Below, piece after piece: positions 4,010-50,373 of a stretch of 64,000 nt of DNA. Positions within the stretch are counted from its first letter, which is position 1. Every line of letters begins with the position of its first letter. The stretch is from the NCBI GenBank assembly GCA_964016885.1, contig OZ024750.1, positions 19,096,001 through 19,160,000 of the forward strand, written 5' to 3'. Origin of the DNA: Eledone cirrhosa (taxonomy: Eukaryota). A program made the position numbers and the translations under genes. The notes below the pieces were generated by a model that was given only the letters and a program-made list of their open reading frames with translations, searched no databases and had not been told where the DNA came from.

Positions 4010-4200
4010 ATACCTTCCTGCCAGATGATTGAACGTCTGAAAGTATATACTTTCCTTATGCATATTAACGGCTGAGCACCCTAATTTGCATATCGAGTGA
4101 GTTAATCGGCCGGAGTACCGAAAACGATAAACGGAAAAAATGAAACTAAATTTCATTTCTCACTCTTAGTACGGCTGTTACTTAAATATAAGGAAGGTAT

Positions 4201-4243
4201 ACGTTGCTGACGATAGCTAATAAGCTTGAAACTAGTACAGCGT
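4201..4243 (+). ncRNA. Minimal type-I hammerhead ribozyme, family A
   Basis: ACGTTG-CTGACGA-T-AGCT(AATA)AGCT-T-GAAA-CTAG-TA^-CAGCGT: intact core, 6-bp stem I, 4-bp stem II, palindromic stem III ACTAGT, GUA triplet. Confidence 0.88.
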
Positions 4244-4994
4244 TCCTTTGTCAGTGTTGAACAAAAGGGCAACGATGGTTGCTAGACACTGTACGGCTTA
4301 ATTCGGGATGTTTGTTTACAAACACACCGAGCATTATAATAAATGTTCGGCGAATCCATACGTACATATATATATGTGTGCATGTATGTATATATATATA
4401 CATACTACTGTACGTCTGTATACATATATGTATGTACGTGTACATACTTATATTTAAGTAACAGCCGTACTAAGAGTGAGAAATGAAATTTCGTTTCATT
4501 TTTTCCGTTTATATAAATATATATATATATACACACATATACACACACATATATATATATATATACACACACACACACACACACACACACACACACACAC
4601 ACACACACACACATATATAGACCTAGCGACCTTGCCTAAAATTCAAAGTCACTGCTACTTTTCTCATCAGAACATAAAATTTACACTCTACCTCTACATA
4701 CACATATTGAGTGTTGTCTTCATTCAGTTAATATTTGATTGCTTTCTATCTAAATATTTATGTTTGAAACATTCTTAGTTCAAACAGTTTAGAATCAACG
4801 GTACGTCTGAGTTCCTCGTTTCGGTTATCTCATCTGGTTAGTTCATCTGGAACAATGGTTGAAAAGATGCATATGCGATTCCTTGTATATCATATTCAAA
4901 TAAACATAAATAACAATACATATTGAAAACAATAAAATAATCGTGTAAATCCACAATAGCCAAATAGAAATATGTATAGTTATGCCCATACATA

Positions 4995-5270
4995 CCGGGC
5001 TTTGCGTTGTGTTCTTGAACAAGACACTTTATTTCACGTTGCTTCAGTTCATTCAGCTGTAGAAATGAGTTGCGACGTCACTGGTGTCAAGCTGTATCGG
5101 CCATTGCCTTTCCCTTGAACAACATCGGTGGCATGGAATGGTGAGGCTGGTATGCATGGGTGACTGTTGGTCTTCTACAAACAACCTTGCCCAGACTTGT
5201 GTCTCGGAGGGGAACTTTCTAGGTGTAAATCCCATGGTCATTCGTGACCGAAGGGGCTATTTACCCGCTC
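4995..5270 (+). mobile_element. SINE family 2 (CORE-like domain), 5' truncated
   Basis: GTGTTCTTGAACAAGACACTTTATTTCACGTTGCTTCAGTTCATTCAGCTGTAGAAATG resembles the CORE domain; related copies near 1640-1740(-), 9420-9600(-), 21380-21720(-), 28659-28980(+), 32935-33190(+), 54860-55080(+). Confidence 0.75.
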
Positions 5271-6270
5271 TATCTATAGGTGGACTTAACAGCTAAAGGA
5301 AAAGAGCAGTGTATTGGAAGAATTGGTAGAGCATCGGTGTTGTACATTGTGAATTTAAGTTTCACGAAACTCAACTTTGCCTCTCGCTCTTCCTTTGGTT
5401 TCAGGGACGGATCCGTACACCCACGTCTTATCTCCAGTTATCAGGGCATTCAGGAATTCAGGATGCTTGTTGGCAGCAGTATCAGACGAAAAGAAAATGC
5501 GACAACTAAATAGGACAGCGTCTCATACGCTGGCTGCTTGACAGTGATTGACGCATCCTGTGAGCTCACGAAAAAAAAACAAAAAAAAAAAAACGAAACA
5601 CACAAACGAACAATACACACACACACACACACACACACACACACACACACACACACATTTCCTGACACCATTACTTCCTACAAGAAAAATAGAAAGTCGG
5701 ATATTTTTTTTGACAAACCTTGTACTCTAACACACCTATTTTGAGCGTTGGAAGTGTGTTTTTTTTCCAACTCATATTTATTTTTTATTTTTATGTCTTT
5801 TGTTTTGCGGAAATGGACGCTGAACATAGGGAAAAACAAACAAATATCTACCGTTGTGAAATTGGTAAAACTCTATTATCATTCTTTGACATCAAACGGA
5901 AATGATGTCATATAAAATACTGAAACTGGGAGAGCGTGACTACCTTGTATGAATGTCACTATTTTGACGTATCTCTCATGAAGGTTAGGAAGCCTCTCCA
6001 TCTTCCATTAGTTTATAACCCAGATAGCCTTCATCACACAGACATACATAGGCATTCATGCACACACAAACATCTACACGTGCACGCATGTACACATGCA
6101 CACATGTACACATCTAGATATGTACACGTGCATGCATGCACACTTGTATACACGCATGCATATACATATGCACACACGCTGTCTGTTTTTAGTGTGCATT
6201 TATGTAGGTGTATGTATCTATCTATCAGTTAATTTGTCGCTATCTATCTATCTATCTATCTATCTATCTA

Positions 6271-46786: not shown

Positions 46787-46986
46787 NNNNNNNNNNNNNN
46801 NNNNNNNNNNNNNNNNNNNNNNNNNNNNNNNNNNNNNNNNNNNNNNNNNNNNNNNNNNNNNNNNNNNNNNNNNNNNNNNNNNNNNNNNNNNNNNNNNNNN
46901 NNNNNNNNNNNNNNNNNNNNNNNNNNNNNNNNNNNNNNNNNNNNNNNNNNNNNNNNNNNNNNNNNNNNNNNNNNNNNNNNNNNNNN
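46787..46986. other. Assembly gap (200 N)
   Basis: Run of n. Confidence 1.
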
Positions 46987-49068
46987 TACATATATATATT
47001 TATATATATATACATATATAGATAGATAGATATATATATATATACATATACATAGATATATATATGTGTGTGTGTATGTGTATGAGCAAGATTCCTTTCG
47101 TTGAAGATCTATATTATATTTGATAATGGAGATTTAAAGCTACAATTTTGTTTTCTTTTCCGCTTCAAGCAAATTTAGTTATTTTCTGAAACAAATATTG
47201 CTTTTAATAGAACACACATCAGTGACATAGTGTTCTGAACCCAGAAGAAAAGTTAGCATTGTTTTCTTCTTCTTCTACTTCTTCTTCTTCATCACCTGCA
47301 ACTACTACTACTACTACTACTAGATCTACTACTACCACTACTACTACTACTACTACTTGATCTTCTTCGTCAACTTCTTTTTCCTCATCATCATCATCCC
47401 CACCACCACCACCACCATCTTCTTCTTCTTCATCATCATCATCGTCACCCCCCACCTTCTTCTTCTTCTCAATGCAAATAATATTACTATTTCCTTCATA
47501 TTAAACTGAACTATTCTTAACATCAAATATATTTCGCTTTCTTTATACTTATCCAAGGAGTCATTCCTAATCTGCCATTTTATGATTTTTTTTCTATTGT
47601 AATCTACAAAAGAAAAATATTGTTTTGATGATGAATTTTAGTGGCTGCGGGATTGATAAATTGATAGCATAGTCGTTTTTGCTATTCTTGTTTATGTACA
47701 TACATGTATGTCGGTGTGTATATATATATATATATATATATATATGTGTGTGTGTGTGTGTGTGTGTGTGTGTGTGTGTGTGTGTGTGTGTGTGTGTGTG
47801 TGTGTGTGTGTGTGTGTGTGTGTGTGTGTGTGTGTGTGTGTGTGTGTGTGTGTATTTAGGTATGCATCTATGTATGCATGTGTGTATGTAGCTATGTATG
47901 TATGCTTGTATATATACATATATACATATAAATATATATATATATAAAGAGAGAGAGAGAAATATATAACTGCATATCTATCTATCTCTTAGTTATATAT
48001 ACATATATGTATACACATACACTCTCTTTCGCGCGCACACACACACACACACACACACACACACACATATATATATATATATATATATGCACACTCCCTC
48101 TTAGACACACAAACCAACTTATTTATAAATATATTTATGTATGTATATTCCGTATTGCTGAAGATTGCTTACAAAATTTGAAGTAAACCACGACAGATGT
48201 AAAATGTCTTTGCAATACTTAACATTGACATGCCGTGCGATGGTATAATCAAGAGGTCACGGGTTCTAATTGCGGTGCCTTCTTTTCAAAATTTTAATGA
48301 GTAATGTTTCTAAAATTAACATGATGTGTTACTGAGGGTGACTGTCACAGTAGTGTACGAAGTAAAACGTGTGCGAACCCTGCATACTTAGACGAATTTA
48401 TTGCTATTTATTTATGTAACAAGTCGAAATATATATATATATTGTATATATATATATATATATATATAAATACATTATCGGAGAAAGCTTTTAGCGATAC
48501 TCCGGCCAAATTCCAACTCACTCAACAAACATTAGAAAATAAGTGAGTATATTCCTAATATACTCACTTAAACGTTCGGGGTGCTAACTAAATGTATTGT
48601 GTGGAAAATTAGCTGTATTATTTCATATGAGATATATCAAATATATCTCTTCCCAGACGGACGTCTCGTTTCATTATAAGATTCCTACAATTTGGGTGAA
48701 ATTATACCAATTTATGTAGGAGCTTGTATACGATCAACAGATATATATTCTTATATATACAGATATATATTCTTATAATTCTTCAGTGGGTGCCCAATAA
48801 TACTAATATTGATAATCTAACCAATATCAGTATTTAGCGATAATCACCACCAGTGCCTGAGGTATCTGTTAGGTTGCTACTCCAGCAGTTCTAAAGAAAT
48901 ACTCAAACTGATTAAAAAATGAGGAAGTATATTACCGCAAAAAAAAACAATACATGCGCAGGACAATGAATTCTAAAAGGAATTCAGGCCACGTGCTAGA
49001 ACTCAATTGGAACTTGAAAAAATATCCATGTGTGTACAACGTTTGATGACACACACAGATATTTTCTC

Positions 49069-49940
49069 AAAAGTTCCAGGACTGATGTCACAAAAGATTT
49101 ATTTCAAACCCCAACTTCACACTAAGAGTTTTCTCCTTCAAAGTAAATCCCCATGGAGTATGTAACTGTAATCTTAGCTCTCTGCAGCGATCAAACTTTT
49201 TTCTTCATAATTTTATATACATGTCCTCTGTTTCAGGTCGTCAAGCAATGAGCACAGAGCAACGAACAAACTTGAAAACTCCGTCAGAAGCACTGGGATT
49301 GCTGCAGCAAGTGTATGGAGATGAGACGATGTCACGCTCACGTGTTTTTGAGTGGTACAAGAGGTTTAAAGAAAGACGCGAGGACGTGGAAGATGACCCC
49401 AGGAGCGGAAGGCCCTCAACAGAACAGGACTGAGGTCAACGTTGAGCGCGTCAGGCAGATGGTGCGTAGCGATCGTCGGCTGACTGTTCGAGTGATGACA
49501 AATGAGCTGGGCATGAATCGGAACAGCGTCTGGAAGATTCTCACTGAAGATTTGGACATGCGGAAAGTCTACGCGAAGATGGTGCCAAAACTGCTGAACG
49601 ATGACCATGCAAGTGTGCCAGGACATCCTCGAGCATCTTGAAACCGAACCAGACTTGCTAGTGACAGTCATCAACGGTGATGAGTCATGGATCTTCGAGT
49701 ACTACCCGGAGGGGACCCGTTTTGAAGACGTGGAACACATCAAAAAGGCCGAGACGACGGAACTGCGGAGGATCCCGGAAGAATCCTTCCAGGAGTGCAT
49801 GCAAGCGTAGTAGAAAAGGATGGAAAAGTGCATTAGATTCCAGGGGGATTCCTTTGAAGGAGAAAACTCTTAGTGGGAAGTTTGGGTTTGAAATAAATCT
49901 TTTGTGACATCAGTCCTGGAACTTTTCTGACCCACCTCAT
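49069..49940 (+). mobile_element. Internally deleted, frameshifted mariner transposon
   Basis: [20 protein letters not shown]...[32 protein letters not shown], then a jump to the C-terminal RFEDVEHIKK...KCI; ~90-bp inverted ends. Confidence 0.92.
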
Positions 49941-50019
49941 GTATGTATGTATGTATGTATGTATGTATGTATGTATGTATGTATGTATGTGTGTGCGTGT
50001 GCGCGTGTGTGTGTGTCTG

Positions 50020-50373
50020 ATGGTAGCTAAGATACTTCCATAAGCGGTATGCCGGTTGAGCACTCTATGCTCTTACACAGCAGAGTATGATAGAATAGAA
50101 AACGAAAAATCAGTGATGTATCTGAACTCAATTTATTGAGTTACAATTGTTTCGCCGGCGGACAGCTCGAGACGCGATCATTGTGGGGATCTGTCTGATT
50201 CTGGACCCGCAGGTTCGACGGACACGTCTAATGATTTCGGAACATATTCTCTCACTGAGAGAATCAGACAGATCCACACAATGATCGCATCACGAGCTGT
50301 CCGCCGGCGAAACAATTGTAACACACAATAAATTGAGTTCAGATGCATCACTGATTTTTCGTTTTCTATTCTA
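50020..50373. mobile_element. Family N fold-back (~110-bp arms) + tail, degenerate hammerhead
   Basis: Arms 50090-50201 / 50259-50373; CTAATGA (50228) ... GAAA-CAATTG-TA (50309-50320) then AATAAA. Confidence 0.75.

Follow-up and report, generated by a model that had tools for sequence, protein, structure and literature searches.

A bulged hairpin beyond the ends of Hydra-type Penelope-like elements is a candidate docking signal for internal initiation of reverse transcription

Penelope-like elements are the closest retroelement relatives of telomerase, and how their reverse transcriptase (RT) chooses its start site, and why a tail is left on one side only, is an open question. We addressed it in a 64,000-nucleotide (nt) stretch of Eledone cirrhosa DNA (GenBank assembly GCA_964016885.1, contig OZ024750.1, positions 19,096,001 to 19,160,000, forward strand), referred to below as the window, which comes from a microsatellite-rich assembly of 3.0 Gb. 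The window carries fold-back inserts (15070-15425, 18673-18790, 31803-31923, 35682-35816, 40271-40381, 42832-43017 and 50090-50374) whose outer ends adjoin (TA)n; one arm stops at a short end and the other continues through a tail to a long end. The original prediction, made from the letters of the window, was that an ACTC...GAGT hairpin just beyond the short end of otherwise unrelated families serves as a recognition signal for Penelope RTs. The candidate answer that emerged from our analysis is a bulged RNA hairpin, usually present twice, that lies a few nucleotides beyond either end.

The positional evidence came from a detector blind to the motif, which took any unique 30-mer that follows a TA run and whose reverse complement occurs again within 3 kb. 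This survey took in the window, the regions next to it and five distant blocks of 200 kb, 1,284,000 bases in all; it demanded a TA run at one end, left out 132 events with a repeat run directly after both arms and yielded 130 tailed fold-back events in 45 clusters, non-Penelope noise among them. The claim that a conserved hairpin lies at a set short distance beyond the short end, across very divergent families, was upheld: 16 of the 45 clusters had an RCTC no more than 20 nt from the short end and a GAGY downstream of it, whereas 500 dinucleotide shuffles averaged 1.0 (maximum, 5) and three shifted or reversed control windows gave 1, 2 and 0 clusters. Among the 16, F24 looks like a chance match and F14 is a second hairpin of the kind described below. 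TA-terminated relatives end mostly 6 to 11 nt before RCTC, and in family A the modal distance from the short end is 8 nt (42 of 82 copies). Counted regardless of position, the strict motif occurs 8 times in the window, a weak excess over a shuffle mean of 2.2 (maximum, 8); the weight of the evidence lies in the position and conservation of the motif, not in that count.

There is only a vanishingly small probability that we are dealing with short palindromes matched by chance in AT-rich repeats. Such an explanation could appeal to the window-wide count, which does not clearly exceed shuffles, and to the failure of one of the sites originally cited, but it is refuted by the positional, metagenome and covariation tests, by the matches of a hairpin model and by successful predictions of long ends in families F6 and L. 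The original prediction had itself held that chance must be excluded statistically for so short a stem, and the positional and covariation tests both lie far above their shuffles.

That stem, taken to be 4 to 6 bp long, proved to be wrongly described, because it has two parts and continues past a 2-nt bulge. The motif consists of GCUC or ACUC, a variable inner stem, a U-led bulge of 2 nt and GAGC or GAGU, followed by ACU or GCU. The outer stem is RCUC/GAGY, the bulge on the 3' side is UU, UC or UA, and the inner stem varies in sequence with its pairing kept. Loops are 8 to 64 nt long, the motif is strand specific and the bulge is one-sided. In the survey set, to which no pairing filter was applied, the inner stem pairs in 40 of 48 cells when 2 nt are skipped on the 3' side and in 15 to 24 of 48 at skips of 0, 1, 3 or 4; shuffling the inner-stem partners gave a mean of 22.9, and none of 100,000 shuffles reached 40. 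In 14 of the 16 survey clusters the two skipped bases are TT, TA or TC, and the outer pair swaps between A-T (8/16) and G-C (7/16). Among the metagenome elements introduced below, Watson-Crick pairs fill 66 of 84 inner cells in the first hairpin (30.7 expected) and 64 of 93 in the second (48.6 expected), with 0 of 20,000 shuffles as high in either case. An alignment of 20 rows picked for loop lengths of 11 to 16 (alignment A2) has 98.4% of its 128 cells paired, 16 of them changed on both sides. The compensatory changes that had been suspected are thus borne out, both by inner-stem covariation and by the GCUC/GAGC pairing of family L.

Single-sequence folding gives the hairpin in families C and D, at the 14718 site and in the intact family A unit, and partly in family L; it did not recover it in a decayed family A copy or in B, G or E. 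Wobble-pair asymmetry was too sparse to separate RNA from DNA. In the Hydra-type unit C22 (L226:3575-3650) both hairpins have a mismatched outer pair (GAGC opposite TCTC and CCTC), and it may be that only CTC/GAG is essential.

We compared the 11 sites of the original prediction letter by letter with the window. All 11 carry the expected letters at their coordinates, and 10 fit the motif; the remaining one, 4117-4074, belongs to family E and finds no support, since only 3 of 40 family copies read ACYC..GGGT. Most family E copies have ACYC or GCGYC..GGCT with the pairing broken, and they end mostly 12 to 13 nt upstream. The hairpins of the window are listed below, hairpin 1 being the one beyond the short end.

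31929..31952, plus strand: family A hairpin 1 with decayed inner stem, 8 nt past the short end; arms 31803-31923
40242..40265, minus strand: family A hairpin 1, intact, ACUC-UACU..AGUA-UU-GAGU; fold-back 40271-40381, long end at ~40194
42548..42571, plus strand: family A hairpin 1, in the long arm of fold-back 42335-42620
42803..42826, minus strand: family A hairpin 1 with the bulge mutated to CA; fold-back 42832-43017
27907..27930, plus strand: family A hairpin 1 with decayed 3' arm, not cited originally; fold-back 27757-27901
15434..15453, plus strand: family B hairpin 1, ACUC-CAGA..UCUG-UC-GAGU; fold-back 15070-15425, hammerhead-like core 15329-15366
14407..14426, minus strand: family B-like hairpin, GCUC/GAGU, likewise additional to the sites first cited
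18649..18667, minus strand: family C hairpin 1; fold-back 18673-18790
50062..50086, minus strand: family D hairpin 1, inner stem UGCU/AGCA, bulge UA; fold-back 50090-50374
14679..14718, minus strand: hairpin 1 with a long loop, inner stem CGGAG/CUUCG, bulge UC; hammerhead-like core 14823-14787
36553..36619, minus strand: hairpin 1 with a loop of ~60 nt; short-end relative at 7704-7872, with its end ~6 nt ahead of where the motif lies
35819..35864, plus strand: family L hairpin 1, GCUC/GAGC; fold-back 35682-35816
40044..40089, minus strand: second copy of the family L hairpin, also new
4074..4117, minus strand: family E tail, motif not conserved; tandem hammerhead-bearing mini-element with two ends 80 nt apart

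The tail of the family A fold-back at 31803-31923 runs to about 32000, and its hairpin maps onto the 3' end of an intact Hydra-type unit; family L is the 3' end of Hydra-type open reading frame (ORF) fragments. The TC bulge is kept in 24 of 26 motif matches at family B loci, and short-end copies of the 14718 family were found elsewhere in the genome.

The motif also occurs outside this genome. Of the six Hydra consensi in File S7 of PMC8557442, which we read by eye, three contain it: coral Hydra-2_Amil and sea-cucumber Hydra-2_Ajap finish in an exact motif, and Hydra-1_Ajap opens with two copies. The copepod consensus holds a near match, and Hydra-1_Amil, whose sequence appears to stop before a tail, has none. 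For a wider set we used an alignment of 40 proteins (that of C22 and 39 of 120 listed relatives), which fetched 96 metagenome loci in 61 clusters, 51 of them with usable flanks. The strict motif, fixed beforehand, is present in 26 of the 51 (antisense, 3; shuffles, mean of 0.5 and maximum of 4), the relaxed motif is present in 43, and inside the ORFs of this set the strict motif occurs once in 160 kb. A model built from 20 metagenome rows alone gave eight window matches at E<=3, all at element tails; seven are sites originally cited and one is new, and 4 of the 11 cited sites (B, E, G and L) are missed. Judged by these comparisons, the hairpin is kept from this genome to corals and sea cucumbers. 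No Hydra-type locus was found in viral contigs. Eighteen loci (L399-L416) in bacterial genome bins hold these animal retroelements, probably as host DNA carried along. Hairpin 2 of the metagenome element L386 has an inner stem and loop nearly identical to those of hairpin 1 of family F6.

Contrary to what was first proposed, the families are not unrelated but belong to one clade. Families A, L, F7 and F17 directly follow endonucleases in which the CxCX5C linker and CxxC/CxH are present and CCHH is absent, the combination by which the Hydra clade is diagnosed (PMC8557442; here and below, papers are cited for the accessible portions of their text). Family A is the 3' end of an intact 3,531-bp unit with a 716-amino-acid (aa) ORF from ATG that contains RWR and DKT, and C22 has an intact 785-aa open frame with RWK and DKT, in tandem; both translations have the CxCX5C linker, lack CCHH and carry CxxC and CxH around a conserved E and N. 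As far as domains can be judged from motifs, a single ORF encodes the RT followed by a C-terminal GIY-YIG endonuclease; there was a weak match to the GIY-YIG part of the window's element (E 5e-6), and a Pfam search of the C22 protein gave no match. Both intact units hold twin hairpins, and Hydra-type ends adjoin TA runs. Family B, the 14718 family and the C22 unit each have a hammerhead-like core; Rfam gave none in the window at its gathering score. The family A hammerhead-like fold (L417:1-110; window 42832-43017) has CUUGAGA instead of the canonical CUGANGA, as does F17; the family A element is intact and tandem despite this noncanonical core. On the evidence of the diagnostic protein motifs by which they were placed, the motif marks Hydra-clade elements.

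A general Penelope signal, as originally envisaged, was not borne out, since the motif was found in 0 of the 5 other endonuclease types whose tails could be seen. One relevant element lies in the window itself.

58600..60915, plus strand: young non-Hydra Penelope-like element, a 5'-truncated copy with RT and GIY-YIG that stops at the short end, tail without the motif

We considered this element as the autonomous partner of the fold-back families and rejected it, because it belongs to a non-Hydra type and has no motif in its tail; its family has many near-identical copies and two ends ~60 nt apart. The motif was absent from the tails seen of four further endonuclease types, and the hairpin model matched nothing in five non-Hydra loci or in the Auto1 locus. 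Counting motifs within 1,500 nt of an endonuclease match, cut at TA runs, gave 1 of 27 for Hydra-type matches versus 5 of 130 for others. This count does not discriminate, because many Hydra-type copies break off at internal microsatellites or at the short end (and, of the five motif-positive non-Hydra places, at least two are tails of other elements), and the link to the clade therefore rests on the direct family links and whole units. Two observations concern the non-Hydra elements themselves. In the 58600-60915 family (L061-L062, C4 tandem), the 775-aa RT frame is preceded by a 476-aa frame that overlaps it in -1 phase, and where the two meet there is a slippery heptamer, U UUU UUA; a frameshifted ORF1 is reported for some Penelope-like types (PMC8557442). 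In one non-Hydra tail (downstream region of L309, cluster F9), ACTC lies 9 nt beyond the short end and the 4-bp inner stem pairs perfectly, with two bases skipped and CGGT in place of GAGT, and related families share the tail word YCGTG; it is possibly a distant echo of the motif.

The role foreseen for the hairpin as a boundary element at the short end is probable, and it is incomplete, in that a second copy would also govern the long end. Most metagenome elements have two hairpins before the start codon, 59 to 83 nt apart in 22 loci, with hairpin 1 mostly ~45 to 70 nt after the hammerhead core and hairpin 2 mostly 35 to 61 nt before the start codon. In family A, hairpin 2 begins 6 nt after the long end (307 exact read-through matches), and the corresponding distance is ~8 nt in the C22 unit, 7 nt in F32, ~9 nt in a relative of family B and 7 to 9 nt in a further Hydra-type family. 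We tried the long-end prediction on four more families (F6, L, C and D) with open patterns. F6 gave 261 matches and L gave 426; among the 100 listed for each, nearly all have one hairpin sequence, at 8 nt and at 6 nt, respectively. Because the long end also precedes a hairpin, the tail equals the spacing of the two hairpins; in family A, with 49 short and 44 long ends, the modal tail is 80 nt. Among 24 metagenome loci with a match between 5' and 3' repeats, 7 end 2 to 5 nt (measured to the alignment end) before either hairpin and continue beyond that end, and many of the other 17 stop at contig ends. UAU starts 6 to 9 nt upstream of the hairpin in 42 of 57 cases versus 6 to 10 of 57 in four windows further upstream.

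The two kinds of end are also coupled. Fold-backs of five motif families combine a short and a long end in 62 of 68 cases, two short ends in 6 and two long ends in 0, with 13 pairs that had an unclassified end left out of the count. This exceeds independent choice, which gives at most half.

It is very unlikely that the twin hairpins are instead part of the 5' leader, with a function in packaging, in translation control or in ribozyme folding, to which the ends are near only via a bound protein. Their places near the start codon and the hammerhead core in metagenome elements would suit such a role, as would the protein requirement of the ribozyme of PAc, the Poseidon element of Anolis carolinensis (PMC11167929), but the distance of the hairpins to the ends (6 to 10 nt) is far tighter than that to the start codon, and tail length tracks hairpin spacing.

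A docking or boundary role for the RT appears to be the best reading of these results. We consider it probable, from the sequence relationships described, that candidate RNA docking hairpins set two internal RT starts, with ends ~6 to 10 nt upstream of either. The RT-endonuclease protein would bind the invariant stem together with the bulge, on an RNA that is uncleaved, multimeric or circular; the (TA)n target, once nicked, would anneal to the UAU just upstream of the hairpin, and complementary DNA (cDNA) would begin there, so that the hairpin itself would remain uncopied. Starts at hairpin 1 would produce the short end and starts at hairpin 2 the long end, the tail being the spacer plus hairpin 1. 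More speculatively, a protein dimer might draw on the two hairpins of a single RNA in priming the two strands of the cut, which would produce fold-backs with one end of each kind. We put forward tentatively, as a substantial possibility, the resulting twin ruler, in which each subunit of the RT-endonuclease dimer would hold one bulged hairpin, with UAU ~7 nt upstream for priming. If true, it would explain the tail, its length, its one-sidedness and the shape of the fold-backs, and it would offer a portable 25-nt signal for internal target-primed reverse transcription.

The set distance and the uncopied downstream hairpin would be accounted for equally well if the hairpins directed RNA cutting, by a host nuclease or a protein of the element, a few bases upstream, with end-primed reverse transcription to follow. 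The size of PAc products is, however, unchanged by added 3' RNA, with initiation internal (PMC11167929), and the conserved UAU at the ends suits primer annealing to (TA)n; we regard RNA cutting as unlikely. Similarly unlikely, and if anything slightly more so, is that the GIY-YIG endonuclease reads the motif as DNA, the short end arising from cutting or arrest at hairpin 1 during resolution of an intermediate. According to a report cited in PMC11167929, the D. virilis endonuclease requires the tail, Craig et al. attribute the tail to endonuclease-mediated resolution (PMC8557442), and the strict coupling of short and long ends suits a snap-back second strand cut near hairpin 1. Long-ended copies nevertheless stop 6 to 9 nt before a hairpin that lies outside the copied DNA, and strand specificity, loops of 8 to 64 nt and a bulge on one side only are not typical of sites in double-stranded DNA. 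Since hairpin 2 is absent from long-ended copies, it would act on the template, which favours recognition as RNA over recognition as DNA.

Several observations weigh against docking hairpins as the determinants of the ends. The invariant P1 pairs add little covariation of their own in alignment A2, and the shuffle tests account for shared ancestry only by clustering at 75% DNA identity. Outside this genome, the Octopus consensus Hydra-1_Obim lacks the partner arm, and 25 of the 51 metagenome clusters are without the strict motif and 8 without the relaxed one. The long-end hairpin was not found in family C (7 mixed matches) or family D (0), where read-through copies may simply be rare. Motif-free families also lean towards short-plus-long fold-backs (6/8 and 3/4). 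In family E two sharp ends lie 80 nt apart and no motif is conserved, and in one Hydra-type family with an atypical hairpin 1 the best 5' arm lies 23 nt from the short end, with GCTC at 8 nt in only one of two copies. Family E is a tandem mini-element of ~440 bp, retrozyme-like, with a Hydra-style hammerhead (window 3746-4560, 16047-16482 and 6446-6674).

Bulged RNA hairpins that the enzyme binds and that fix where copying starts or stops are known from hepatitis B epsilon and the telomerase template boundary element; unlike these, the signal proposed here is doubled and lies 3' of a DNA-primed start. The general idea of internal initiation with a requirement for downstream RNA is already known from PAc, which has two internal start sites that bound a tail, extends both strands and requires RNA to +172, the downstream RNA being thought to hold a protein-binding motif and a dimer being predicted (PMC11167929). 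The elements described here resemble PAc in their two discrete ends with a tail between them and in their AT-rich targets; PAc, however, is of the Poseidon clade and starts in an AC-rich stem-loop, and Penelope tails measure 30 to 40 bp, compared with about 60 to 110 here. The accessible portions of PMC11167929 locate the required downstream region and describe no motif in it, conserved or repeated. Our elements share with the Hydra clade of PMC8557442, which includes an Octopus member, the single RT-GIY-YIG ORF, an RWK-like motif, DKT, (TA)n targets, partial tandems, an inverted truncated copy and a one-ended tail; in its accessible portions that paper covers protein motifs and hammerheads, not this hairpin. 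Retrozymes that lack long terminal repeats (LTRs), or non-LTR retrozymes (PMC7229834; bioRxiv 10.64898/2026.07.22.740005) are likewise short hammerhead units from Penelope ends, and family E resembles one, whereas family A copies are truncated ends of an autonomous element; the accessible portions of these papers mention no such hairpin.

In keeping with the original view that the motif was undescribed, we found no report of it or of twin hairpins in a search that had subscription papers, Repbase notes and figure panels outside its scope. The architecture and internal initiation are known, and the conserved doubled signal that predicts both ends appears to be new. A covarying motif of ~25 nt, kept across animal phyla and predicting both insertion ends, names the mutations to make, and young intact elements are at hand for testing them. 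It provides a sequence marker for the boundaries of Hydra-clade elements and their nonautonomous derivatives and might be of use for RT-based DNA writing that starts internally.

An Rfam scan of the window gave 0 matches at the gathering score, and a relaxed scan returned only fold-back and microsatellite look-alikes, which we rejected. The ORF at 49276-49641 (plus strand) resembles a piece of a mariner-type transposase, and that at 7202-7609 (minus strand) resembles the endonuclease end of a non-LTR element, with no supporting Pfam match for either. Unrelated to the element tails, an abundant interspersed repeat of ~170 to 280 bp that resembles a short interspersed element (SINE) occupies 1434-2233, 10695-11017, 12147-12522, 23833-24066, 28196-28381 and 51168-51462 of the window.

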